Assembly: GCA_047651235.1 (NCBI GenBank)
Contig: CP178758.1
Span: 2,730,001-2,762,000 of the forward strand
Length of the DNA: 32,000 nt
Direction: 5' to 3'
Origin: Candidatus Electrothrix yaqonensis
GTDB lineage: Bacteria; Desulfobacterota; Desulfobulbia; Desulfobulbales; Desulfobulbaceae
Shown here piece after piece: positions 3,077-19,017 of this stretch. Position numbers and translations under genes: made by a program. Within the stretch, counting starts at the first letter, position 1, and each line of letters opens with the position of its first letter. The notes beneath the pieces were generated by a model, which was not told the origin of the DNA, did no database searches, and saw nothing but the letters and a program-made list of their open reading frames with translations.

Positions 3077-3721
3077 TTACAGGAGTTCTCCTGAAGTATA
3101 GTCGAGTAATAATGCAGAGCGCAACACGCCGTTTTTGCCCTGAACATTACAGTTGATATATCGTGTGGCACCATGTCTGATCATGCCGTGATGGTTGTGG
3201 ATATGGCCAAAAATATGATATTTGGGTTGTACGACAGCCACAGCGGCTGCGAGGTCTGAACAGCCGTGACAGACCGGGCCGTTCCGGTCAAGGATACCGG
3301 CCGGAGGCGTATGCGTGACAAGAATATCGACTTGCGGCGGGATCATCTCCCATTTTTTTCTGATAATTTTCCCGCGCGGCAGGGCAAAGGCATCACAGGC
3401 AATGTCGTTGAACAGCGGCTGCCAGGGTGCCCCGTAAATAGTGATATGGTCAATGACGACAGATTCGTCTTGCAGATAAATTGCCTCTGAAAGAAGGGCA
3501 TTGGCCTTTTCCAGATCACAACAGGCAAGCCGATGGTCGTGGTTCCCGGCAACCACGATTTTATGCCTATGCGGCAGGCTGCCGAGGAAGTTGTTAAAGT
3601 TTCGCACATCCCGGTCGGTTCTGCAGTGGGTCATATCACCGGCAAAGATCAGCATATCTGCATTCGGGATATTGATTTTCTCATGTAAGGTATGGGTATC
3701 GCTGAAGAGTGCTATTTTCAT
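3077..3721 (-). CDS. Calcineurin-like metallophosphoesterase
   Basis: ORF 3077..3910. The likely start is the ATG at 3721 (MKIALFSDTHTLH). Motif series: SDTH, FAGDMTH, VAGNHDH, VTHTPP, FGHIHNHHG. The alternative start at 3736 cannot be excluded. Confidence 0.8.
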   Translation of the reverse strand: MKIALFSDTHTLHEKINIPNADMLIFAGDMTHCRTDRDVRNFNNFLGSLPHRHKIVVAGNHDHRLACCDLEKANALLSEAIYLQDESVVIDHITIYGAPWQPLFNDIACDAFALPRGKIIRKKWEMIPPQVDILVTHTPPAGILDRNGPVCHGCSDLAAAVAVVQPKYHIFGHIHNHHGMIRHGATRYINCNVQGKNGVLRSALLLDYTSGELL

Positions 3722-3869
3722 GACGCAGGTCGGCATTGATTTTCCGGTTGCTATCGGGCGGTTCTCAACAATATACCCAGAGCAGCAGGGCAGGGCGGAT
3801 GATAGATATTTCCGGGAGATTTGGTGGTGATTTTGGGTCAGTAATAGCCTCCGGTCAGGCCGAACCAGT

Positions 3870-4298
3870 TTATAGATTGGGAAATAAGTGGGCGTCCTCT
3901 TTTCGGGCATGAACCAGTATCATTTCGAGCAGCTTCCTGCTTGACAGCATAATGTCTTCAACCTGTTCTTCCGTGGGCTGGTCCCCGTACGAAGCAACTC
4001 TTTCCATAAACACAGCAAGTTTGTGTAATATTTTTATATGGTCCTGTTGCAGTATCCGAACCAATCTTCTTTCTTTTTCATTGCCGTATTGGATGATAAG
4101 GGGGAATATCTCCTCCTCTTCAAACTGGAAATGCTTCACTATATATTCATCTGAGAACTTCCGGAGTCTTTTGATGTAGTCCTGTACTTCATCGGCATCT
4201 ATTCCTTCGATGAATTTTTTAAAGAACGTCATCTCTTCGGAAATCATACCGTGATCAAGGTATGCCTTGGTCAGTTTGTCCATTTTTACGTCTTTCAT
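3870..4298 (-). CDS. Hemerythrin-like (HHE cation-binding) domain protein
   Basis: 142 aa. Repeated H...E...FP units (HFQFEEEEIFP, HARKEDAHLFP; also QQDHIKILH). AT-rich like the three genes upstream of it: about 32% GC in the 60-nt line at 4021, by hand count. Confidence 0.65.
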   Translation of the reverse strand: MKDVKMDKLTKAYLDHGMISEEMTFFKKFIEGIDADEVQDYIKRLRKFSDEYIVKHFQFEEEEIFPLIIQYGNEKERRLVRILQQDHIKILHKLAVFMERVASYGDQPTEEQVEDIMLSSRKLLEMILVHARKEDAHLFPNL

Positions 4299-4359: not shown

Positions 4360-4977
4360 CTAATTATCCGTATCAATTGGTTCTTCTTTCTTCAATATAT
4401 TTTGCCGTTCCAGTTCAAACGCTATAAAAGGATATCTTTTCTGTAAGTGTTTAAAAGAAATTTCATTCTTGAAATAATGAGAACAGCAGATCTGTCGCTC
4501 TATAACTAAATCTTCATCATCATTGAGCTTCAAGTGCTTTATCGTTTCCTGTAAAGGTTCTTGTTCTTTCGGAGAAAGTTTCGGGTTCGGCTTTATAAGG
4601 AATGATCTGAAATCAAGAACAAACGAGTTGGGGAGTAACTTGAACGGATCAACAACAGAATGCGTTCCTTTTCTGGCGTTGAATCTGAGAGAGGAGTACC
4701 TGTAATTATCCCATTCATAGGCCAATTCAGGTTGTCGTGATTTTGGGATAAAATGATCTATTGAGTGATTGCCTGTGCTGTGCGGAATCCAGGATGCCGA
4801 GTAGGCGCAAATTCCTTTATATGCCTTGCGCATATCAGGCAAAACACGCTGCCAGTATTCTCTGCCCCGCCATTGCTGAGAAGTCGGGCTGTGGTTTTCA
4901 GAGAGAAAGTGTTTCCCGGGATTTCGTACCCGCTTTGTAAAATCAGGAGGTTCCGGGTGCTGCTGAACGGGGATCAT
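4360..4977 (-). CDS. HNH (His-Me finger) nuclease-like protein, PtuB/TIGR02646-like
   Basis: 205 aa. Core is NHSIDHFIPKSRQPELAYEWDNYRYSSLRFNARKG (about nt 4666-4767) with the DH...N...N arrangement. Its ATG overlaps the stop of the upstream ATPase (ATGA at 4974-4977). Confidence 0.7.
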   Translation of the reverse strand: MIPVQQHPEPPDFTKRVRNPGKHFLSENHSPTSQQWRGREYWQRVLPDMRKAYKGICAYSASWIPHSTGNHSIDHFIPKSRQPELAYEWDNYRYSSLRFNARKGTHSVVDPFKLLPNSFVLDFRSFLIKPNPKLSPKEQEPLQETIKHLKLNDDEDLVIERQICCSHYFKNEISFKHLQKRYPFIAFELERQNILKKEEPIDTDN

Positions 4978-6905
4978 AACTCTACACCGTGTTCTTCAGC
5001 GAAAAATGTCCATCGAGGCCAGAAAGGATCATGCGCTGCAAGATATTTCACCAGAAGATCCGATACTTCGGCAACCTCTGCGCGTGTAACATTCTCTTTA
5101 TCTTGGATTTTCTTCGCGTCTTCAATAGCCTTTTCGCCTTCCAGAGAACGCGGTTGCGCAAGTTCAAAGAACTCAGATTGCAGCCAGGAATTGACAGTGC
5201 CGTATCTGATGAATTCCGGTTCCTGCAACACAACTTCAGCTCCTGAATGCTTATTGACTAAATTCAGATGAAAAATTCTGTCTTTATTCCTTTCAAAGAG
5301 AGGTTCAACAGCGGACAGTAATAAAGGGGAATGCGTGGCAATCAGAAGCTGCACGTTCAACTCAGGTGCCAAATCTGCTTGGATGCCTAATAATGCGGGA
5401 AGAATTTTTCGCTGCCACTGCGGGTGTAAATGCGCTTCGATCTCATCCACCAAGATCACCATTCTTCTTTGCGGCGGTTTGCGAATCAAACCGGACTGCG
5501 TTTTATGTTCTTCCCAAGCCCAAACAATCAGATAGGCCAAGGCCACTATCCGGCGGACTCCGGCTGAAGCATAGATAAGCGGTACCTCACCATAGGAATG
5601 CTTAATGGTCGGCATCCAACGGCTGTCATTGGATACTCGGGTCGGTTTTCCCGGTTCCAGTGTACCAAGATCCCCTTTGTCCAGATCCGGTGGAGACAGG
5701 CGTTTCAAGACCCGTTTCAATGTTGCAAACGGTTCTTTTTCAGGACTGTTCTGCCAGAGAATCCAGTCTGCAATTAACCCGTTTGATAAAAAGGTGGTCT
5801 GACCACCAGTTATCTCCTGCAGACCATTCCAGATTTCATTTCTTGTAAAAATGAGCGGTCTGGAAAATTTCCTTTGAGCGGATTCGGGCCAATAGTCCCT
5901 TGCCGGATCCCATACAGCAAAAGCTCCATCAACACGGGCATAAAGAAGAAGGCCGGGTATTGCCGGACGTTCCTCAAGCAGAGACCAGTCCTGTTTCTCC
6001 CAGTTATACTCAGAGAGGCCCTTATTTAGTTTTCCTGTTTTTCCTTTGATCTCAAAAGATATTTTTGACTCGTAGGCATTCGTGTTCTGTCCGGGATAGG
6101 CAGGAAAACCAGTCCAGTTTCCGCTTAATGCCCACCAAGCACATTCCAAAACAAAGCTTTTCCCTAATCCGTTGTCACCTGTAAAGAGGTTGATTCGTTC
6201 CGCCAAGTGCAGGTCAAGTTTTTTTGCCGGACCAACTCCTTCAATCAAGAGTGCTGAAAGGGTTCCGCCTTCGTCCTTAGGAGCATCGTCAGGCACCGGA
6301 ATATTCAACTTTTCTACCAATTCTTGCCAAGAAAAGAGGTGCTCACTAAAAATAGAGTCTCCTTGGCAAGTTCTATCTATTGATGTATCAAATAATTCTT
6401 CCTGTTCTATATCATTAATTTTGAATTTCTTAAAAAATTCATCAATTATTTGTTGCGCTGTTGTAGACAAATGCCATTTTTTTTCTCGGAATATCCATAC
6501 AGCAAGAGCAAATGCCGGTATTAGTCGTTCCTGATAAAGATGTCGCTTTAGAATGGTTACATACTCTTTCTTCCAGCCCCATTGATCTGTTCCTTTAGCA
6601 TGGATAAATGCCTCCCCAAATGTACTTGTCCTTAATTTTTGCGAGCCTTTCCAAGGATAATCTGGTCGAAGCCAAAATTTACTTTTATCTGATACCCTGA
6701 AAGGTCTATAGAAGTATTTGGAATCGGACTCCGGTTGAAAATATTTCTGTAGAAATATTTCTTCTTCACGGTTTATAGCAAATGATAAAGCAGTTCCTAC
6801 AGGAAAATCAAGTTGTTTAGCGACGAGGAAGTTGATCCCAAAAAAAGGATGTACCAACTCAAGAGAATTGAGACAATTTTCAATCTGTATTTGACTCAAA
6901 AACAT
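4974..6905 (-). CDS. ABC/SMC-like AAA ATPase (AAA_15/AAA_21-type, PtuA-like) with an unassigned ~235-aa N-terminal domain
   Basis: 643 aa. Walker A INLFTGDNGLGKSFVLE (GDNGLGKS about nt 6156-6179). Signature-like ASAGVRRIVALAYL. Walker B RMVILVDEIEAHLHP (about nt 5421-5462). H-loop region LLIATHSPLLL. An AAGGA Shine-Dalgarno overlaps the methyltransferase stop 9 nt upstream. Confidence 0.75.
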   Translation of the reverse strand: MFLSQIQIENCLNSLELVHPFFGINFLVAKQLDFPVGTALSFAINREEEIFLQKYFQPESDSKYFYRPFRVSDKSKFWLRPDYPWKGSQKLRTSTFGEAFIHAKGTDQWGWKKEYVTILKRHLYQERLIPAFALAVWIFREKKWHLSTTAQQIIDEFFKKFKINDIEQEELFDTSIDRTCQGDSIFSEHLFSWQELVEKLNIPVPDDAPKDEGGTLSALLIEGVGPAKKLDLHLAERINLFTGDNGLGKSFVLECAWWALSGNWTGFPAYPGQNTNAYESKISFEIKGKTGKLNKGLSEYNWEKQDWSLLEERPAIPGLLLYARVDGAFAVWDPARDYWPESAQRKFSRPLIFTRNEIWNGLQEITGGQTTFLSNGLIADWILWQNSPEKEPFATLKRVLKRLSPPDLDKGDLGTLEPGKPTRVSNDSRWMPTIKHSYGEVPLIYASAGVRRIVALAYLIVWAWEEHKTQSGLIRKPPQRRMVILVDEIEAHLHPQWQRKILPALLGIQADLAPELNVQLLIATHSPLLLSAVEPLFERNKDRIFHLNLVNKHSGAEVVLQEPEFIRYGTVNSWLQSEFFELAQPRSLEGEKAIEDAKKIQDKENVTRAEVAEVSDLLVKYLAAHDPFWPRWTFFAEEHGVEL

Positions 6906-6914
6906 TGGCTATCC

Positions 6915-7751
6915 TTATAGCTTTGATAAACTTTCGACTATATATTGGCAGAATTCCGGGTTAAGATCAATACCTGTAGCAGAACATCCAGACTGAACCG
7001 CAACCCGCAACGTAGTTCCTCCTCCAGCGAATGGATCAAGCACAGAACCTCCTATAGGACATCCAATATCAAGACATCTTTGTACCAATTCATCTGGATA
7101 AGGAGCTGTACCTATATGTGTTCCTTTAGGCCGCGCCGAGATCGTCCACATGTCTTCTTGCTCTTCAGCTTCAAGAGCTTGCCTATTAAAGTAATATTTA
7201 CGATTTTTGACAAACATGAAGATATGTTCATAACTTCTTCGTGGTCGATCCTGCACTGATTCTGGCAAAGAATGTTTTCGATACCAAATAATAGGACTCC
7301 GCAATACCCAATTGCGTTTACACATTTCCAAAGCCACTCTCCAAGGAATACCTATAAGAGATTTCGGCTTAACTCCGATATCTAAGCCGCCACTCTTATC
7401 CACCGCCCGTAAACCGAATCGCCGTTTACTGCTTTTTTTATCAACTCCGTGTGATTTTCCTTTACCGGAATAATAGGTGTCTCCAATGTTTAAAAAAAGT
7501 ACACCGTCTTGTTTGATTACTCGGTAAACTTCATCCATCACATTACTAATGGAATCAACATATCCTTCAACAGTATCTTCAATACCAATTTGTCCGTCAA
7601 CTCCATAATCGCGTAACCAGTAGTACGGAGGTGATGTAACTACACAATTATAGTGTTCAGCTGGTAATTCTTTGAGAATTTTAAGGGCATCTCCCTTATA
7701 AACAGTCCAATCTGTATTCGACTTTGTGTGTCCATAAAACTTTTGAATCAT
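6915..7751 (-). CDS. Beta-class DNA amino-methyltransferase (N4-cytosine or N6-adenine)
   Basis: 278 aa. Motif IV VVTSPPYYWLRDYG (SPPY about nt 7623-7634) precedes motif I VLDPFAGGGTT (about nt 7011-7037). That is the circular permutation of beta-group MTases. SPPY rather than DPPY leans toward m4C. Confidence 0.85.
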   Translation of the reverse strand: MIQKFYGHTKSNTDWTVYKGDALKILKELPAEHYNCVVTSPPYYWLRDYGVDGQIGIEDTVEGYVDSISNVMDEVYRVIKQDGVLFLNIGDTYYSGKGKSHGVDKKSSKRRFGLRAVDKSGGLDIGVKPKSLIGIPWRVALEMCKRNWVLRSPIIWYRKHSLPESVQDRPRRSYEHIFMFVKNRKYYFNRQALEAEEQEDMWTISARPKGTHIGTAPYPDELVQRCLDIGCPIGGSVLDPFAGGGTTLRVAVQSGCSATGIDLNPEFCQYIVESLSKL

Positions 7752-8148
7752 ATATCAGTTGGTTATAAAAGACAATTAGGAGTTGAAAGTTGCTGTCAGC
7801 ATCAGCATGGTAAGTGTGATCGATTCTTCAGAAATTCTCTGGAATCCCAAGACCAGTCTGACTACTGTTTTCACGGTATCAAAAGAACCATGCTGCCTCG
7901 AAAAAGTAAACAGAAATCCGCTGTTGTGAGAGAAAAAGGAGTCCTCGACCAAAGTGGACTGCTTGAGGAATTCAGACACGGATCTGATAGGTGAACAGAC
8001 CGTTCAGGTTCTGCAGAAGCTGATTGCGCGGGTGGTTGCAGCTCGGTCTGCGATGTTTCAGTGAGATTGAGATAATCCGGCAGGGTGCAATGGCCGCAAC
8101 GAGATCAGGAAGTTTTCTTTTTAACAGCAGCCTGATCCGGTGCATAAA

Positions 8149-9813
8149 TCATTTTTCTGCATCAAGGCTGTACGTAAGTTCTCTGACCCTATACTGTGGC
8201 GGTTCTCCGGTCAGTAAAAAGGTGATGGAGCCTGTGCTGGCAACGCGCCTGGACGGGGAATAGGTCAGCAGCACCTTGAAGCGCCCTGTGACAGCGACGT
8301 CTTTTCCTTTCAGGTCGGTTGTCACCAGAGTGATATCGTAATCAATGGACTGAACAGAGTTGAAGAGCCGGGTGTATTTTTTGCGCATTGCAGAAAACCG
8401 CGTACCGTTCTCCTGTGCATCGGGGGTAAAGAATGCGGCGAATTTCCGTATCTCCCTGCTTGTATAAGCAGTTGTATAGCGGGAGAAGAATCCTTGTAAA
8501 TCCTGTAAAGAGGGTGTGGACGGGACCGTTGTTTTTCGGGAGACGGCTTTGTCCTCATTATCTTCAATAACCTTCTTTTTCTGAATCTTTTTTCTCGTAG
8601 GCAGTATAACGGCCTTCCGATATTTGGCACCGGCAAAAGGCGATTTCCTTTCCTGCTCTTTGTCCGACTGAGCAGGGACAGATTGTATATTTTCTGTTTC
8701 TTTTTCCGGCCGGGGTTGTTTCTCGGCAGAAGCAGCATCGGTAGCTACGGGAGCTGGTTGCCGCTCATCATCCGCCGGACCAGCTGACGGGAGTTGAACA
8801 GCTTTCTCCTGCACATCGGCTGGTTCGGGTAATTCGGGTGATTCCTGTGGCAGGACATCATAGGACACCGTTGATGCAGAGGAACTGGAACTGTCTTGGT
8901 CTATTTTTTTATACGGCGTTTCCGGTTGCTGTCGGGGTGGTGCTGCTGCAACAAATAGGGGAAGCGGCTCGGCTGCTTTAGTCTGCGGTGTGAGTGCCAG
9001 CATATCTTCCTCCCATTTTTCGTGGGCTTGGGAAGAATGGGAGATTGTTTCCGGCTGTGCTGTGGTGTCGTGTTGTACAGTCTGCGGGGTCGGAGCGGCG
9101 GGTGGCTGTATCTGCTGTCCAGCAGGTTTGGCCGGAAGAACCGGAAGAGTTTCTTTATCCTTAGAGTTAGAGGACGGGGGAGAGAAACTGTCAGAATCAA
9201 GTCGACTGAGGTTGTTCAGCATTGCCTGTTTCTGATAGAAGAGAGAAACGGCAATGATGAGGACCAAAAACGCCCCTGCAAACAGAGAGGCCAGGTAGAT
9301 GTATCTGTTTTTTCCTTCTTTCTTTGCAGGTTGCCTTTTTTTTTTATGCCGCCAGACAGTCGGGCGGGCCGCTTTGTCACCCGCTGTTGCCGGACGATTC
9401 ATTATGCTTTGGTAGGCCCTGCTGATTTCAATAAATTTTGCTGTATTTTCTTTACCGGAGGTGTCAGGATGATATTTTATGCTGAGCTGACGGAATGCCT
9501 GCTTCACCTGCGCACGGTCTGCATCGGCATCAAGTCCGAGAATCTGATATTCTTTACTGACATTTTTCTGCGGCGCGAAAATACTCAATATCTGCTGCAG
9601 TTCCAGGGAAAGCAGATCAACAGAAAGATGATGACTGCGGCAGAACAGATCCAGCTCCCGAAGTTCCTGTTTGTTTTTCCGCGCTATTTTCCTCCGCAAG
9701 TCTGTGCAGACTTTGGTCATTGCGTCATCTTCCGCAATAAACAGAATCAGTTCCTCCGTGGAAGGACGGGAAGCTATCTTTACGATAAGATGTTGTTCGT
9801 CGGCCAGCATCAT
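8149..9813 (-). CDS. J-domain (DnaJ-like) membrane protein with a Pro/Gln-rich linker and an NTF2/SnoaL-like C-terminal domain
   Basis: 554 aa. J-domain YQILGLDADADRAQVKQAFRQLSIKYHPDTSG...ISRAYQSI (HPD present). One TM segment (YIYLASLFAGAFLVLIIAVSLFY). A long low-complexity P/Q/S/E region. The C-terminal LQGFFSRYTTAYTSREIRKFAAFFTPDA...VTGRFKVLL reads as an NTF2-like fold, which is inference. The start overlaps the upstream stop (ATGA-type, 9810-9813). Confidence 0.7.
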   Translation of the reverse strand: MMLADEQHLIVKIASRPSTEELILFIAEDDAMTKVCTDLRRKIARKNKQELRELDLFCRSHHLSVDLLSLELQQILSIFAPQKNVSKEYQILGLDADADRAQVKQAFRQLSIKYHPDTSGKENTAKFIEISRAYQSIMNRPATAGDKAARPTVWRHKKKRQPAKKEGKNRYIYLASLFAGAFLVLIIAVSLFYQKQAMLNNLSRLDSDSFSPPSSNSKDKETLPVLPAKPAGQQIQPPAAPTPQTVQHDTTAQPETISHSSQAHEKWEEDMLALTPQTKAAEPLPLFVAAAPPRQQPETPYKKIDQDSSSSSASTVSYDVLPQESPELPEPADVQEKAVQLPSAGPADDERQPAPVATDAASAEKQPRPEKETENIQSVPAQSDKEQERKSPFAGAKYRKAVILPTRKKIQKKKVIEDNEDKAVSRKTTVPSTPSLQDLQGFFSRYTTAYTSREIRKFAAFFTPDAQENGTRFSAMRKKYTRLFNSVQSIDYDITLVTTDLKGKDVAVTGRFKVLLTYSPSRRVASTGSITFLLTGEPPQYRVRELTYSLDAEK

Positions 9814-11042
9814 TGAAGACTATCCTGCACAGGAGGAGGAGCGGTTGTTTCCTGCAGAGAAAAGTTAGTGAGCCACAGGTCACCGCTGATGAGATTGTCA
9901 ATATTTCTGCTTGGACGGCGGCGCACCAGAACCATTACGCCCTGTCCGCATTCTTCAGGTACTGTAAAGGGAAGAGTGAACCGTGTCCAGTCCTGATCTG
10001 CCTGCACCATATCTGTATCAGAACGCAACTCGCAGTCCCTTCCGAGAACCTCGATGAACGGCTTCTGGTCTGTTGTCAAGGCATGGCTCCGCAGTTCACC
10101 GGAAAGAATGAAATGCCTGCCGGGCGGCAAGGGAATGATCTGCCTGACATGATAATAACTAATATTTTCTGCACCGTTGAAACGGATATGCATTGCTGAT
10201 GTCTCTCCTGCCTGCCCGGTGGAATCTGCCTCAACTTCCTCAATCTTCCAGATCCTCCAACCAAATCCTCCCCTGACAAGAGGGGGGGTAAATGTTCCGT
10301 TATACAGAAGATTACCGTCGGGCCACGGGAAGTATTCTTTCCAGGCGGCAGCCGCTGTATCAATCTGTTTTTCGTTGATCAGCAGACTTATATATCGAAC
10401 TATCTGCTGCTGGTCAAGATCTGCAGGGCGTATTCTGTCCCACAGAAAAGATGCTGTTTCGACTTTCTGTGAGAGTACAGCATGATGAAACAGAGGAAGA
10501 ATGTTCTCCTGCCCCATTCCGCGCAGCAAGTCTTCCGGGTCGGACCAGAGGGAAAACGAAAAATTGATGATTTTTTTTCTGGTTGCCCGGCTGGTCTGTT
10601 CCTGCTGCAGCAACCAAGCGATATCCGTTTTCAGGATATCCTGCCGCCCCAGAAGATAGGCCAGCATTGCCTTTTCCCAGCGCCAGCGGATGACGTCCTG
10701 CATCAGGTCATCAAGATATTCCAGTATCTCCGCAGCACGGTCGGCATTACCGCTGTCATTTTCCAGTTCAGCCAGAGCCAGCCAGGCCGGGATGTACAGC
10801 GGGTTGGCCAGCAGAGCTTTCTGCAGCCATTCTTTTCCTTCCTGCTGATCACCTGTCAGAATCGCCTGTTTACCGTACATGACCAGCAGACCGGGATCCC
10901 GCTGATATTTGCGTATAGTTTTATTCGCGGAAATATTGCTGCTGTACACAGTCTGTGCAACTGTGGCAATACGCACCTCAAGAAAAGTCAGGATAACAAG
11001 TCCTATAAAAAGGAGGATGCGCAGAAGATATCCGGGCAGCAT
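9810..11042 (-). CDS. TPR-repeat protein with an N-terminal membrane anchor and a C-terminal beta-sandwich (carbohydrate-binding-module-like) domain
   Basis: 410 aa. N-terminal hydrophobic segment LLRILLFIGLVILTFL. TPR-like helices (EGKEWLQKALLANPLYIPAWLALAELENDSGNADRAAEILEYL). The C-terminal 150 aa are rich in beta-strand pattern (FGWRIWKIEE...WTRFTLPFTVPEE...DLWLTNFSL). Confidence 0.6.
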   Translation of the reverse strand: MLPGYLLRILLFIGLVILTFLEVRIATVAQTVYSSNISANKTIRKYQRDPGLLVMYGKQAILTGDQQEGKEWLQKALLANPLYIPAWLALAELENDSGNADRAAEILEYLDDLMQDVIRWRWEKAMLAYLLGRQDILKTDIAWLLQQEQTSRATRKKIINFSFSLWSDPEDLLRGMGQENILPLFHHAVLSQKVETASFLWDRIRPADLDQQQIVRYISLLINEKQIDTAAAAWKEYFPWPDGNLLYNGTFTPPLVRGGFGWRIWKIEEVEADSTGQAGETSAMHIRFNGAENISYYHVRQIIPLPPGRHFILSGELRSHALTTDQKPFIEVLGRDCELRSDTDMVQADQDWTRFTLPFTVPEECGQGVMVLVRRRPSRNIDNLISGDLWLTNFSLQETTAPPPVQDSLQ

Positions 11043-11085
11043 GACTGATTACCAAACAAAGGTATAGCCGGATAACGAAGCTGAT

Positions 11086-13398
11086 TTATCCATCTCTTCG
11101 GGATTCACCGTAGTTGTAGTCATATTTGTAGGCGTAATAACTACTGTATTTGCTGTATGCGCCGTACCCCTTCTGCTGCCCTGTTTTGTTGATAAGGGCG
11201 CCGAGTATTTTGCCGTTGACATTCAGGACAGAACGTCGGAAATGTTTTACTCCATCCCGCGGCGTATCTCCCTCAACAGTGACCAGAATAAGGCCGTCAA
11301 CCATATTGGCCAGCACCAGAATTTCAGCAAATCCCTGGAAGGGCGGCGCATCAAGAATAATATGGCTGTAATGTTCGCTGACATTTTTCAGCAGCTCCCG
11401 CATCCTGTTGGATGCGATCAGTTCCGCCGGATTAGGGGGCAGAGGGCCGCTGGAGATATAATCCAGCCCTTTATAGTCTGTCTTCTGAATAACATCTTTC
11501 AGACTGCTGATGCCGCTGAGCACGCTGGAAAGCCCTTCTCCTTTCCGTTCCGCATCAAAAACATGATGGAGGCTCGGCTTTCTGAGATCAACATCAATGA
11601 TCAGGCATTTTTCCCCGGTTGACAGATAGGAGAGCACTGTATTGGTGGACAGAGAGCTCTTTCCGGCCCCGGCCAGGATGCTGGTGACCAGAATGGTTTT
11701 CGGCGGGTGTCCGGCAGCGGAGAGATCAATGGATGTAATGGCCGTGCGGACCGATTCGGCAACCGGAGAACGGGGATCAGTATATGATTTCAGGGCCATA
11801 TCCCTCCGTCTGTGTTCGCATTCCTTATCAAAGGGGATAAGGCCCAGCACCGGGATATGGAAGCGGCTGATCAATTCTTCCGGATTCTTGACCGTATCAT
11901 CAAGATATTCGACCAGGAATGCCACTCCGACACCGCTGAACAGGCCCAACAGCAGACCCAGCAGCAGGTCGCGGGCGACTCTGGGTTTTGAGGGATATAA
12001 CGGAACCCTGGCCCGATCTATAATATTGATATTGGTAACAGCGGCGCCGAGAGTAGCCTCGATTTCCTTTGCCCGCTGCAGCAGACTTTCATAAACGGTT
12101 TTATTGGTTTCTGTTTCCCGCAGCAGTATTTTGTACTGGGTAGCCCTGTCATTCAGCTCAATGGCGCGCTGTTTTTGCTCTTCCGCCTTGACCTCCAGAT
12201 ATTCCTGTTTTTTCAGCGCTGCTTCGTAATCATTTTTGATGGATTCAACAATAAATTGTTTTTCTTCCCGGATACGCTGTTTAATGTCATTTATCTTGGC
12301 CTGTAGCTGCCGCATCTTGGGATATGCGGGTTTGAATGTGGTGGACAGATCCTGGTATTCCGCTGTCAGCAGTGAATACTCACCTTTCAGTTGTTTAATC
12401 AGATCATCCTGAAGGATCTGCGGCAGATTCTGATTGTCTTTGCTGATGGCCTCCTGATACAGGGATTCCTTGCTGATACGTTCAGCACGGGCCTTGGCAA
12501 GGGCGTCATTCAGTTCCTCCAGCTGTCGCATGATCAGATTGAGTTTCGGGTCCAGAGAGACCAGACCGGCCTGACGGGAAAAATTATTGAGTTCTTTTTC
12601 CGACTGCTCAAGTTTTATCTGGGCAGCCTGTATCTGTTTTTCCAGAAATTGGGCAGCGTTTCTGGATGAGTCCATATTGGTATCCATGTGCATCTGGATA
12701 AACTCATCCATCGCTGTATTGACTAGTGCAGCAGACAGTTGTGCATCCGGGGATTCAAAGCTGAGTTCGATCAATTCGCTGTTGCGTATCGGGTTTATTT
12801 TCAACCCATCCTGCAGTTTTTCAACAATCTCTTCGGTAAGTAAACGTTTTTTTCCTTCCTCATGCAGAGTATTGTCCACTTCAGAGCTAAAACGGATAAA
12901 GTTGCGGATAGAGGCCAAGCCGAGCCGGACCAAGCCAGCAAAAGATGCGTCTTCTCCCTGACCTGCCTGTATTTCCTCATTAAAAAAAGGTTGGTTCTCC
13001 AAGTCAAGTTTTTTGATAAGACGTATTGAGAGCTGTTCACTTTCCAACAGATTCACCTGCGTCTGTTGGAATTCTATGGATTTGAGGGCGTCTATCTGGA
13101 GATCTTCAAAACTGGTCACCTTGCTCTGAGCAGCAGACGCTTTCAGAGTGCCCTTTCCTTCAAACAAAGGGGTACGGGTCAGGGTGAACATTGCTGTTGC
13201 AGAAAAGATGAAGAGGAGAGACGTGATGATAACCCATTTTCGACGGATAACGACATCAATATAGTCCCGCAGATGGATTTCTTCATCCTCCAGCCGGGCG
13301 ACTGTTTCCTGATAGTCAACCGAAGGCAGATTCCGGCTGTCAGAGGCGGAACCTACTATAATTTGCCGTTCCGTATCGTTCGGGCGCGGTTGGTCCAT
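11086..13398 (-). CDS. Polysaccharide co-polymerase / bacterial tyrosine autokinase (Wzc/EpsG/GumC-type BY-kinase)
   Basis: 770 aa. Wzz-like N-terminal domain with a TM segment (WVIITSLLFIFSATAMF). Long coiled-coil periplasmic region and a second TM. Kinase Walker A ILVTSILAGAGKSSLSTN, Walker A' IIDVDLRKP, Walker B IILDAPP. C-terminal Tyr cluster GYGAYSKYSSYYAYKYDYNYG. Confidence 0.9.
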   Translation of the reverse strand: MDQPRPNDTERQIIVGSASDSRNLPSVDYQETVARLEDEEIHLRDYIDVVIRRKWVIITSLLFIFSATAMFTLTRTPLFEGKGTLKASAAQSKVTSFEDLQIDALKSIEFQQTQVNLLESEQLSIRLIKKLDLENQPFFNEEIQAGQGEDASFAGLVRLGLASIRNFIRFSSEVDNTLHEEGKKRLLTEEIVEKLQDGLKINPIRNSELIELSFESPDAQLSAALVNTAMDEFIQMHMDTNMDSSRNAAQFLEKQIQAAQIKLEQSEKELNNFSRQAGLVSLDPKLNLIMRQLEELNDALAKARAERISKESLYQEAISKDNQNLPQILQDDLIKQLKGEYSLLTAEYQDLSTTFKPAYPKMRQLQAKINDIKQRIREEKQFIVESIKNDYEAALKKQEYLEVKAEEQKQRAIELNDRATQYKILLRETETNKTVYESLLQRAKEIEATLGAAVTNINIIDRARVPLYPSKPRVARDLLLGLLLGLFSGVGVAFLVEYLDDTVKNPEELISRFHIPVLGLIPFDKECEHRRRDMALKSYTDPRSPVAESVRTAITSIDLSAAGHPPKTILVTSILAGAGKSSLSTNTVLSYLSTGEKCLIIDVDLRKPSLHHVFDAERKGEGLSSVLSGISSLKDVIQKTDYKGLDYISSGPLPPNPAELIASNRMRELLKNVSEHYSHIILDAPPFQGFAEILVLANMVDGLILVTVEGDTPRDGVKHFRRSVLNVNGKILGALINKTGQQKGYGAYSKYSSYYAYKYDYNYGESRRDG

Positions 13399-17053: not shown

Positions 17054-17791
17054 TTATCTGCTTGCACTGGCATCGTCGTCGTCATCATCGCCGAGAAGAT
17101 CAGCACCGGCAAATTCCGCAACACCGATAGCTGCACTCGCTCCTACCACAGCAACTGCAGTATGAAACGGAGCGTTTTCAATCGATAATAGTTTGCAGCC
17201 GTTATCTGCTTCTGCAGCACGTTCCGTCGAACTCTCCATCGGTTCTGCTGCTGACGGGTCCATTGCCTGAGCCAGAACAATATGGTTGTTGCCGTCAACA
17301 GTTGCAGGTCCGTCCACTGTATTAAAGATCATGCGGCCTTCATAGACACCGACCTGAGTACTGCCGTTTTCCTCAACCTGCATATAACCGCGAACCGGAG
17401 AATGGGTACCTGCATTGAAAATAAGATTTGCAACAGTGTATTGTCCGTCAGGTGTATAAAATCCCATTTTGCCTACTGTATCATTGATAACAAAATCGAC
17501 CTTTCCCTGCCTGAGGAGCAGATTGAACTGCTCCTGATCGGTTTTGACGGACAGTTCGGCTCCGTCCGTACCGATCAGAGAAATACCTGTGGATTTCAGC
17601 ATACATTGACCGTCACAGATCAGCAACGCTTCTTCTTCAACAGGATTTCGCCCTGTAAACTTGGTTGCCAGCTTCCCATTTTTGTAGACCGAAATATTAC
17701 CCTGAGCAACTATGGGCATACTTTGGGCACCTGCTGCAGCAGCTGTCAGTAATGCCACCATAATTCCGGTCGCTATAATTTTTATCTTCAT
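17054..17791 (-). CDS. Secreted FecR-like beta-domain protein, paralog 1 (245 aa)
   Basis: ORF 17054..17848. ATG 17791 is preceded by AAGGAGG and gives the signal peptide MKIKIIATGIMVALLTAAAAGAQS. The core (GNISVYKNGKLATKF...EALLICDGQCMLKSTGISLIGTDGAELSV...) resembles FecR-type sensor domains. C-terminus is hydrophobic stretch + DDDDDDASASR. Confidence 0.7.
   Translation of the reverse strand: MKIKIIATGIMVALLTAAAAGAQSMPIVAQGNISVYKNGKLATKFTGRNPVEEEALLICDGQCMLKSTGISLIGTDGAELSVKTDQEQFNLLLRQGKVDFVINDTVGKMGFYTPDGQYTVANLIFNAGTHSPVRGYMQVEENGSTQVGVYEGRMIFNTVDGPATVDGNNHIVLAQAMDPSAAEPMESSTERAAEADNGCKLLSIENAPFHTAVAVVGASAAIGVAEFAGADLLGDDDDDDASASR
17266..17755. repeat. Copy 1 of a 490-bp near-identical segment (tandem gene duplication, period 949 bp)
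   Basis: Hand alignment to 18215..18704 at constant offset 949 finds 4 mismatches in 490 nt. Start codons (17791/18740) and stop codons (17054/18003) are at the same offset. Confidence 0.9.
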
Positions 17792-18002
17792 CTGGGCCTC
17801 CTTTTTGTGTGATTTCAGGCGACGACTTACTTTCAAAAGAAACATCATTGTTTCGGACTCAACTGCGCACTATACCAAACCAAACACCACTATAGTTCAG
17901 GTTTATTCTGAACAGCAGTGATTGGAGCAGCTTTTTCGATCTATTTCATCTCTTAAATATGGATTGTTTTGGCAAGATAACCTCCTGATGAGCTGGCATA
18001 AA

Positions 18003-18740
18003 TTATCTGCTCGCACTGGCATCGTCGTCGTCATCAATAAAGCTGCCATCTTTTGTATAATCGTAAACGCCGACAGCAAGCCCTGCTGCTACAAGACCTC
18101 CACCAATAAGAGCTGCAGAAGACATGGCACCGCCTGTTCCTGCAGCAGCCTCCGCAGAAGCACTAGGCAGAGTTGCACCTTCTGAAGGAGGAGTATCAGG
18201 TAAATCTAAATTTCCCTGAGCCAGAACAATATGGTTGTTGCCGTCAACAGTTGCAGGTCCGTCCACTGTATTAAAGATCATGCGGCCTTCATAGACACCG
18301 ACCTGAGTACTGCCGTTTTCCTCAACCTGCATATAACCGCGAACCGGAGAATGGGTACCTGCATTGAAAATAAGATCTGCAACAGTGTATTGTCCGTCAG
18401 GTGTATAAAATCCCATTTTGCCTACTGTATCATTGATAACAAAATCGACCTTTCCCTGCCTGAGGAGCAGATTGAACTGCTCCTGATCGGTTTTGACGGA
18501 CAGTTCGGCTCCGTCCGTACCGATCAGAGAAATACCTGTGGATTTCAGCATACATTGACCGTCACAGATCAGCAACGCTTCTTCTTCGACAGGATTCCGC
18601 CCTGTAAACTTGGTTGCCAGCTTCCCATTTTTGTAGACCGAAATATTGCCCTGAGCAACTATGGGCATACTTTGGGCACCTGCTGCAGCAGCTGTCAGTA
18701 ATGCTGCCATGATTCCGACGGTCATGAATTTTTTCTTCAT
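18003..18740 (-). CDS. Secreted FecR-like beta-domain protein, paralog 2 (245 aa)
   Basis: ORF 18003..18773. ATG 18740 is preceded by AAGGAG and gives the signal peptide MKKKFMTVGIMAALLTAAAAGAQS. The core is the same as paralog 1. The C-terminal part is different (…LIGGGLVAAGLAVGVYDYTKDGSFI) and ends in DDDDDASASR. Confidence 0.7.
   Translation of the reverse strand: MKKKFMTVGIMAALLTAAAAGAQSMPIVAQGNISVYKNGKLATKFTGRNPVEEEALLICDGQCMLKSTGISLIGTDGAELSVKTDQEQFNLLLRQGKVDFVINDTVGKMGFYTPDGQYTVADLIFNAGTHSPVRGYMQVEENGSTQVGVYEGRMIFNTVDGPATVDGNNHIVLAQGNLDLPDTPPSEGATLPSASAEAAAGTGGAMSSAALIGGGLVAAGLAVGVYDYTKDGSFIDDDDDASASR
18215..18704. repeat. Copy 2 of the 490-bp near-identical segment
   Basis: See copy 1. 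The four mismatches are P1 versus P2: ataagatTtg/ataagatCtg, cttcAa/cttcGa, caggattTcg/caggattCcg and aatattAc/aatattGc. Confidence 0.9.
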
Positions 18741-19017
18741 TTGCGACTCCTTTTTTCGTTTGTTTGCAGGCAACTGGCCTATCTTGCCTACCTTAATGTG
18801 CAGGATAAACTATATAGTCATTGTAGCGTAGTCAACTACCGTATACAAGAGAAAAATGCAGCCCTCTACCAATCCTGATCCGGCTGCTTCATGGACAATA
18901 TCACGGACTTTTTCTGGAACAATCATCACACGGGACGCGACAGTTAACGGGATTATTGTGCAGAGAGAAGTACGATATATTTTTCCTCTGATTATAGAAG
19001 CATACTTTTCAGCAGGG

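Follow-up and report, generated by a model that had tools for sequence, protein, structure and literature searches.

A DNA methyltransferase gene coupled to a Septu-type ptuA-ptuB pair: a candidate restriction-modification-like cassette in Candidatus Electrothrix yaqonensis

Introduction

Septu is among the bacterial defence systems most frequently detected in genome surveys, and how its PtuA and PtuB proteins (PtuAB) recognise infection is debated. The triggers proposed are ATP depletion for stand-alone Septu and the multicopy single-stranded DNA (msDNA) of the retron for type I-A retrons. Septu type I, the pair of a PtuA ABC ATPase and a PtuB HNH nuclease, was reportedly described by Doron et al. 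in 2018, with a structure deposited as PDB 8EE4/8EEA. Here we analyse a 32,000-nucleotide (nt) stretch of the genome of the cable bacterium Candidatus Electrothrix yaqonensis (contig CP178758.1, positions 2,730,001 to 2,762,000; hereafter the window, whose numbering is used throughout), in which a ptuA-ptuB pair directly follows a DNA methyltransferase (MTase) gene. The PtuA protein carries an N-terminal domain (NTD) in front of its ATPase body; PtuA loci with this domain are called long-form and those without it short-form. Our results suggest that the trio is probably a restriction-modification (R-M)-like cassette, in which the MTase would mark self, the NTD would read the unmodified site and the PtuA oligomer would license cutting by PtuB.

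The trio lies on the minus strand, with open reading frames (ORFs) at 6915-7751 (278 amino acids, aa), 4974-6905 (643 aa) and 4360-4977 (205 aa). All three proteins are found at 100% identity in the metagenome-assembled genome of Candidatus Electrothrix sp. YB6. The features of the trio are as follows.

7747..7775, minus strand: weak match to a sigma-70-like promoter, immediately 5' of the MTase start (consensus scan, 9/12; low confidence)
6915..7751, minus strand: beta-class DNA methyltransferase of the Pac25I/XcyI family (Pfam and PADLOC profiles, motifs)
6912..6916, minus strand: AAGGA, Shine-Dalgarno-like, overlapping the MTase stop and 6 nt before the PtuA ATG (read from the sequence)
6261..6905, minus strand: NTD (aa 1-215) of long-form PtuA (AlphaFold2 [AF2] model, profile searches)
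4974..6260, minus strand: ABC-ATPase body of PtuA (aa 216-643; PADLOC, Pfam and PDB sequence matches)
4360..4977, minus strand: PtuB, a His-Me/HNH nuclease of 205 aa (PADLOC, AF2 and Foldseek)

By profile and fold the pair belongs to Septu, while in function the trio appears most like LlaJI-type R-M, without membership of that family. As in Septu type I, PtuA and PtuB match the PADLOC Septu models over their full length and their genes are adjacent and co-directional with a 4 nt overlap; the adjacency and shared direction hold in the related loci too. PtuA retains intact Walker A, Walker B, signature and H-loop motifs and PtuB an intact D-H...N...N core; the predicted structure of PtuB superposes on the Septu chain 8eea_G. 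Unlike Septu type I, the clade of the window has an MTase upstream and a 215-aa NTD, both lacking in its closest short-form relatives (0 of 52), and the trigger implied would be the methylation state of DNA rather than the ATP level or a phage protein. The septu_type_I definition comprises two genes, and here an MTase is conserved upstream in 24 of 27 loci, together with the clade-specific NTD. Whether the trio corresponds to a system already named was a question raised by the initial annotation; only the pair maps to one, PADLOC Septu type I.

Two types of Septu are distinguished in the PADLOC paper, type I (PtuAB) and type II (reverse transcriptase plus PtuAB) (PMC8565338). The Hma operon, composed of a helicase, an m5C MTase and an ATPase, is separate and often found near Septu (PMC8565338; PMC11232893). 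Both Septu types and the Hma operon differ from the MTase-PtuA-PtuB trio. We found no description of such a system in the full-text literature, the coverage of which is incomplete, so that an earlier one is possible. In public annotations the three proteins appear as 'DNA-methyltransferase', 'AAA family ATPase' and 'hypothetical protein', and the trio with NTD-bearing PtuA is widespread and previously unremarked.

Type I-A retrons (Retron-Eco7/Ec78) resemble the locus in having a third element 5' of ptuA-ptuB (PMC8565338), which an N-terminal extension of the retron PtuA contacts (PMC12673091). Moreover, the retron PtuB is the best structural match of the window PtuB (9u9y_H, E=8e-7). Unlike in the retrons, the third component in the window is an MTase, and the 215-aa NTD is not demonstrably related to the 63-aa NTD of the retron protein. 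No reverse transcriptase domain was found in the ORFs neighbouring the trio and no Rfam RNA between positions 2000 and 10000, which rules out a retron; the NCBIfam retron equivalog models score far below their cut-offs (78 against 500 for PtuA and 42 against 150 for PtuB).

In McrB-family enzymes the N-terminal domain is a variable DNA reader (PMC7680126). LlaJI combines an McrB-like protein, R1, whose unique N-terminal half is the sole specificity determinant, with a cleaving protein, R2, and with two protecting MTases; unmethylated DNA is restricted (PMC1459862). The trio is alike in having a methylase, an NTPase with a distinctive N-terminal part, which in LlaJI sets specificity, and a separate nuclease. 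It differs in that the NTPase is an ABC ATPase and not an AAA+ McrB GTPase, the nuclease is an HNH enzyme (PtuB) and not a PD-(D/E)xK McrC, and a single beta-class MTase of m4C (N4-methylcytosine) type takes the place of two m5C enzymes. The NTD of a Helicobacter pylori LlaJI.R1 homologue has a B3-like fold (PMC7680126). This fold was absent from the matches of the window NTD in a Foldseek search of the PDB.

Cfr9I and XmaI are isoschizomers of the Pac25I/XcyI group; all of these cut CCCGGG, and m4C is the modification. The window MTase belongs to the family of this group (PADLOC model PDLC03387, 39-42% identity, TSPPY motif), and its gene likewise comes first, the MTase stop overlapping the start of the nuclease gene in Pac25I/XcyI-type systems. 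Restriction in those systems is by one XcyI-family endonuclease and not by an ATPase and HNH pair. At approximately 40% identity the specificity of the window MTase may differ from CCCGGG.

Results and Discussion

Linkage of the MTase to long-form PtuA

We surveyed one genome per species and searched all ORFs at 80 PtuA loci with the window proteins. The loci comprised 27 long forms, 52 short forms and one that was cut at a contig end (L007). A homologue of the window MTase stood directly upstream and on the same strand at 24 of the 27 long-form loci but at none of the 52 short-form loci (Fisher exact p=2.6e-17). This co-conservation of the MTase with the ATPase/HNH pair had been set as a test in the initial annotation. 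Among the 113 nearest-neighbour ORFs of the short-form loci, the sole DNA MTase was a C5 enzyme adjoining a Bpu10I restriction endonuclease (REase). The gap between MTase and PtuA ranged from -50 to +30 nt in the 23 complete trios, and spacing as tight as this in 23 related loci is not due to chance.

Carriers of the trio are found in more than 10 phyla and include Chloroflexota, Cyanobacteria, Desulfobacterota, Acidobacteriota, Planctomycetota, Alpha-, Beta- and Gammaproteobacteria, Bacteroidota, Spirochaetota, Nitrospinota, Zixibacteria and Firmicutes. Cultured carriers include Trinickia soli GP25-8 (L022), Sphingopyxis sp. JAI128 (L021), Microcoleus sp. BROC3 (L003), Coleofasciculus and Leptolyngbya 'hensonii'. 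PtuA identities among the loci range from 33% to 77%, and the loci are thus not near-clonal copies. The flanks of the trio in other genomes are unrelated, with no recurrent fourth gene, and because they are not conserved the cassette appears to move as a three-gene unit; from these sequence comparisons the trio would be self-contained and horizontally mobile. Look-ups that began from the MTase and reached long contigs gave the trio in 3 of 3 cases, and for approximately 30 of the top 120 MTase matches the contig was apparently that of a top PtuA match.

The components also vary together. In a mirror-tree comparison of pairwise identities, the correlation was r=0.70 between MTase and NTD and r=0.67 between MTase and ATPase, values that were reached in 0 of 2000 permutations. 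Conservation is highest in the MTase (mean pairwise identity, 56%), followed by the ATPase (46%), PtuB (41%) and the NTD (34%). A neighbour-joining tree of the ATPase part separated long from short forms with the exception of L025, a short form without NTD and without MTase that nests among the long forms, which points to a joint loss of the two. Three long-form loci (L019, L004 and L005) have no MTase. In one of these, from a member of the Blastocatellia (L019, 6855-8738), S, L, E and L stand in the NTD at the positions of H102, W109, G110 and W111, whereas the locus retains intact Walker and HNH motifs. Destruction of this signature fits the R-M model, since loss of a protecting methylase would demand it.

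N-terminal domain of PtuA

The presence of a separate N-terminal module was revealed by two PADLOC PtuA models: PDLC00270 matches the window protein with 775 bits over model positions 1-627 of 627, but PDLC00307 (505 bits) covers only aa 216-641. The AF2 model of the NTD (aa 1-215) has a mean predicted local distance difference test score (pLDDT) of 92 and a predicted template modelling score of 0.88, with residues 212-218 disordered. On this model the NTD would be an autonomous fold joined to the ATPase by a proline-rich linker (approximately aa 200-218). We found no Pfam match and no PDB sequence-profile match to the domain, and Foldseek gave nothing significant in the PDB (best E=0.31) and no match in the viral structures of BFVD.

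A profile search of 1.84 billion representative proteins returned 302 matches to the NTD. The 150 that were listed nearly always begin at their own N-terminus, in proteins of approximately 550-670 aa or in shorter fragments, and no other architecture was present among them. The NTD had no match in 50,697 phage records, and on plasmids PtuA was found only in the short form. The central segment (aa 61-145) carries a net charge of +10. The invariant residues within it are W78, H102, W109-G110-W111, Y115 and W137, of which H102-W111 are encoded at 6573-6602. We propose that the NTD may be the reader of the target site of the MTase.

ATPase and nuclease

The pair had been identified as a PtuA-like ATPase and a PtuB-like HNH nuclease, and our searches agree. 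In addition to the PADLOC matches given above, PtuA matches the Pfam families AAA_21, AAA_15 and AAA_23, and its sequence matches in the PDB include the Septu PtuA 8ee4 and the retron Ec78 PtuA. The Walker A motif GDNGLGKS occupies aa 243-250 (K249) and is encoded at 6156-6179, the signature SAGVRR lies at aa 447-452, ILVDEIEAHLHP at aa 484-495 with the Walker B motif ILVDEIE encoded at 5436-5456, and the H-loop ATHSP at aa 523-527. The Walker A, signature, Walker B and H-loop motifs are invariant across the homologues.

PtuB matches PADLOC PDLC00348 over its full length (219 bits) and has no match among the Pfam HNH models. Its catalytic core, D74-H75...N91...N100, is encoded at 4678-4758 and is invariant in the long and short clades. 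In a Foldseek search the AF2 model (pLDDT 91.5) gave the retron Ec78 PtuB 9u9y_H as top match, followed by the Escherichia coli Septu PtuB 8eea_G (E=7e-6, template modelling score 0.61), both with probability 1.00, and then by Cas9 HNH domains. The motifs quoted in the initial annotation (SPPY, FAGGG, GDNGLGKS, SAGVRR, ILVDEIEAHLHP, ATHSP and DH...N...N) are thus all present, and its numbering of K249 and H75 was right.

Methyltransferase

The window MTase matches Pfam N6_N4_Mtase (PF01555) with 133 bits. Motif IV, TSPPY, is encoded at 7623-7634 (SPPY, aa 40-43) and precedes motif I, FAGGG (aa 241-245, encoded at 7017-7031), which is the beta-class order and bears out the class originally assigned. 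The best PADLOC model was MTase_II PDLC03387 (267 bits); since M.Pac25I scores 461 bits on it, this model represents the Pac25I/XcyI family. In the PDB the window enzyme is closest to TTHA0409, in which TSPPY likewise occurs, and to N4-cytosine MTases. SPPY or SPPF and an FxGxG motif occur in each of the 22 MTases compared (21 loci and the window), and it can be argued from this invariance that methyl transfer itself is under selection.

The SPPY motif is typical of m4C enzymes. This motif and the similarity to the Pac25I/XcyI methylases indicate an N4-cytosine-type MTase that probably methylates a short specific site to give N4-methylcytosine. In Xanthomonas, 4mC has been reported at CCCGGG (PMC5117858). 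The count of CCCGGG sites in the window is uninformative as to depletion (5 sites against 8.0±2.6 expected). No match to any REase_II model was found in the window genes scanned; the genes downstream of the MTase are those for PtuA and PtuB.

A basic loop of the MTase, GDTYYSGKGKSHGxDKKSSKRRFGLRAVDKSGG (aa 90-122, 7386-7484, minus strand), is near-invariant in the PtuAB-linked enzymes, and G90-G122 has no alignment to the closest PDB relative, TTHA0409. The loop was considered as an NTD-specific interface, but this was ruled out: it is recognisable also in McrBC-linked and XcyI-type MTases and is therefore a family feature.

Gene junctions

The three genes are co-directional and closely packed, with the coordinates and overlaps first claimed for them. 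The MTase stop TAA (6917-6915) is followed by nine nt, GGATAGCCA, and then by the PtuA ATG at 6905. The position of the AAGGA, which overlaps the MTase stop 6 nt before this ATG, suggests that MTase and PtuA are translationally coupled. The PtuA stop and the PtuB start share the four nucleotides ATGA (4974-4977). The MTase and PtuA ORFs are in frame and are parted only by TAA GGA TAG CCA, with two stops (6903-6917, minus strand). No natural fusion of the two proteins was present among the 150 best NTD matches. In a promoter and terminator scan, the number of sites in the region was no higher than in shuffled sequence.

The same MTase family ahead of other nuclease modules

A tblastn search of plasmids with the MTase gave 118 records. 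Relatives with 39-42% identity (over 91-100% of the length) lie 5' of an XcyI-family type II REase with a 4 nt overlap. In plasmid relatives with 44-50% identity, the gene after the MTase encodes an AAA_5 (McrB-like) ATPase and the next one a McrC-like (PF10117) or unknown protein. The MTase-AAA_5-McrC-like cassette was present on three plasmids (L088:4004-7756; L090; L091) and at the metagenomic loci L094-L140. The latter came from a metagenome scan with the McrB-linked NTD, which gave 47 loci; an MTase homologue (E ~1e-75) lay immediately upstream in all 44 that had upstream DNA, and a McrC-like gene lay downstream where the contig extended far enough. The MTase thus occupies a coupled 5' position ahead of three nuclease modules: a single type II REase, a McrB/McrC-like pair and a PtuA/PtuB pair. 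In a tree of the MTases, the PtuAB-linked and McrBC-linked enzymes grouped together and the XcyI-type enzymes apart.

The McrB-like ATPases have approximately 250-300 aa ahead of the AAA+ domain, which align start-to-start with the PtuA NTD and have no Pfam match. A comparison of the two NTDs with hhalign gave a probability of 93.6% (E=2e-7) from four sequences and of 94.6% (E=7e-8; 159 columns, residues 2-165 against 3-182) from 38 and 54 sequences; mismatched domains used as controls gave 0.1-4.9%. A hidden Markov model (HMM) of the PtuA-associated NTD set ranked 41 McrB-like ORFs ahead of all others among 1515 ORFs. Homology of the PtuA NTD to the NTD of the MTase-linked McrB-like ATPases is therefore probable, but not proven. 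This probable reuse of the NTD on McrBC-like engines and the recognition of the NTD itself extend the initial reading of the locus.

The closest plasmid MTase (50% identity) is from the Mycobacterium paragordonae plasmid NZ_CP025548.1 (L087:4085-8737). Downstream of it are an AAA_5 ATPase of 625 aa, whose N-terminus resembles the NTD (weak HMM match, 12.5 bits), and then a protein of 669 aa to which neither Pfam nor PADLOC gave a match and which may be another effector type.

It is possible that the MTase and NTD form a portable specificity module that turns unrelated NTPase-nuclease engines, the ABC ATPase and HNH nuclease of Septu PtuA/PtuB on the one hand and the AAA+ and PD-(D/E)xK proteins of McrB/McrC-like pairs on the other, into systems that restrict unmethylated DNA. 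The trio would then belong to an unnamed class of ATP-dependent R-M, with the Septu oligomer as restriction enzyme and the NTD, a new fold, as reader of an unmethylated (m4C-type) site. We regard this broader proposal as finely balanced.

Proposed mechanism and alternatives

In the mechanism that we favour, and consider fairly probable, the Pac25I/XcyI-family MTase would methylate a short specific site, probably to N4-methylcytosine, and so mark host DNA. The PtuA NTD would recognise that site in its unmethylated state, this recognition would be relayed through the PtuA ATPase oligomer to the bound PtuB HNH nuclease, and PtuB would cut the foreign DNA. The comparisons establish what the genes encode, the integrity of their catalytic motifs, their coupling, the strict co-occurrence and co-variation of MTase and NTD, and the reuse of the MTase, and probably of the NTD, with other nuclease modules. 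From them we infer the methylated base and its site, self-protection by methylation, DNA binding by the NTD and its preference for unmethylated DNA, and the cleavage of foreign DNA. An R-M-like role, as first suggested for this locus, is supported by the position of the MTase family 5' of, and coupled to, XcyI-family REases and McrB/McrC-like pairs. Analogy with the N-terminal readers of the McrB family and with LlaJI makes this three-step model the best supported.

Several observations weigh against an R-M-like cassette. The evidence for it is entirely comparative. In the sister loci L004 and L005, both cyanobacterial, no MTase is adjacent and yet the NTD, the ATPase and, in L004, the HNH motif are intact, which argues against lethal self-restriction unless an MTase is encoded elsewhere in these genomes. 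No DNA-binding fold can be recognised in the NTD; the only hints of one are non-significant PDB matches to winged helices (probability 0.10 or less). The individual HMM E-values for the NTD homology are marginal, and the reverse HMM, a profile of the McrB-like NTD run against the PtuA loci, was not discriminating. The flanks are only weakly enriched in defence genes, with scattered matches among the 140 flanking ORFs of the 27 loci. Furthermore, a review preprint describes Septu as ATP-regulated (bioRxiv 10.1101/2024.10.26.620412), and the PtuAB of Retron-Eco7 degrades tRNA-Tyr and is not a site-specific restriction enzyme (PMC12673091).

Three other explanations have to be weighed against the R-M-like model. 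One, that an orphan or remnant type II MTase happens to lie beside an ordinary two-gene Septu in a defence island, is suggested by the PADLOC labels, which call the pair Septu PtuA/PtuB and the MTase separately a type II methyltransferase, and by a PADLOC candidate defence gene (PDC-S10) two genes away. Coincidence of this kind is effectively refuted by the contrast between long and short forms (24/27 against 0/52, p ~3e-17), by the gaps, which stay between -50 and +30 nt in 23 loci although these come from more than 10 phyla and have unrelated flanks, by the co-variation of MTase and PtuA and by the MTase-first look-ups (3/3), in loci whose PtuA identities of 33% to 77% are not those of near-clonal copies; the probability that we leave to it is very small. 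A functional link of another kind would arise if the NTD were an adaptor that docks the MTase on the PtuA oligomer, as in type III systems, the MTase then recognising the site for modification and for restriction alike, in the manner of Mod with Res. Docking would lead one to expect that NTD and MTase co-occur strictly and co-vary, as they do, but L004 and L005 retain an intact NTD without an adjacent MTase. Similarly, the lack of a recognisable DNA-binding fold would suit an adaptor, but the basic, aromatic-rich patch of the NTD (aa 61-145, net +10) resembles a nucleic-acid surface more than a protein interface, and in the McrB-like relatives the probably homologous NTD sits where the DNA-reading domain of McrB sits. 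Translational coupling fits a stoichiometric assembly, the MTase is better conserved than any other component (mean pairwise identity of 56% against 34% for the NTD), and in Retron-Eco7 the N-terminal domain of PtuA contacts the third component of the system (PMC12673091). On balance we consider docking unlikely.

A guard or toxin-antitoxin arrangement, as in type I-A retrons, would make PtuAB an abortive-infection toxin that is restrained through the NTD by the MTase or by methylated DNA; a phage factor (an MTase inhibitor, a DNA mimic or depletion of S-adenosylmethionine) would free PtuAB and the cell would die. There are precedents for such a role: PtuAB of Retron-Eco7 alone causes growth defects and is restrained by the reverse transcriptase-msDNA complex, which contacts the PtuA NTD (PMC12673091), the introduction of a 2024 paper classes Septu with abortive-infection systems (PMC11232893), and the preprint cited above calls Septu ATP-regulated (bioRxiv 10.1101/2024.10.26.620412). 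In the Menshen paper, too, solitary methylases are noted beside ABC-ATPase defence systems, with their role left open (PMC12065111). The MTase of the trio, however, is from a family that forms the modification half of type II XcyI-family REase systems and of LlaJI-like McrBC-type cassettes, its catalytic motifs are invariant, and the coupled order with the MTase first is that of its XcyI-type R-M relatives. A guard system is thus, in our view, quite unlikely.

If the R-M-like model is correct, a Septu effector can act through epigenetic discrimination of self from non-self, and the line between abortive-type systems and R-M is blurred. With the trio, the means by which a Septu effector distinguishes its own DNA from foreign DNA would be directly open to experiment, and the NTD is an uncharacterised candidate DNA-reader domain. 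The apparent reuse of MTase and NTD on McrBC-like engines is also a testable example of the modular assembly of restriction systems. We would expect pipelines such as PADLOC to call these loci plain Septu plus a separate methylase. Labelling of this kind would under-count R-M-like barriers to transformation, including those in cable bacteria (Candidatus Electrothrix).

Genomic context

The trio lies in a low-GC island (39-41% GC against approximately 51% in the flanks) between an exopolysaccharide gene cluster and housekeeping genes. No tRNA gene, flanking direct repeats or integrase was found at its boundaries. A small ORF upstream (7776-7979) was considered as a controller protein and rejected, having no family match and no conservation across the loci. 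Recurrent 'mad2/mad3' matches in the flanks of the related loci were ruled out as defence genes and are UvrA and ABC transporters.

Two genes downstream of the trio, a calcineurin-like metallophosphoesterase (3077-3910, minus strand) matches the PADLOC candidate defence family PDC-S10 with 235 bits; it is overlapped by 41 nt by a hemerythrin-domain gene (3870-4298). Upstream of the island (8149-13398, minus strand) are genes for a 554-aa DnaJ-domain protein, a TPR protein and a Wzc-like tyrosine autokinase. The remainder of the window, with Wzy, Wza-like and GT2 genes, an acetyl-CoA synthetase and a TrkA-type channel, is ordinary chromosomal context. Within the exopolysaccharide cluster, two neighbouring genes (17054-17848 and 18003-18773, both on the minus strand) encode proteins that are 90% identical over 196 aa; neither matches Pfam, each has at its N-terminus a hydrophobic stretch that may be a signal peptide, and the two genes look like a recent tandem duplication.

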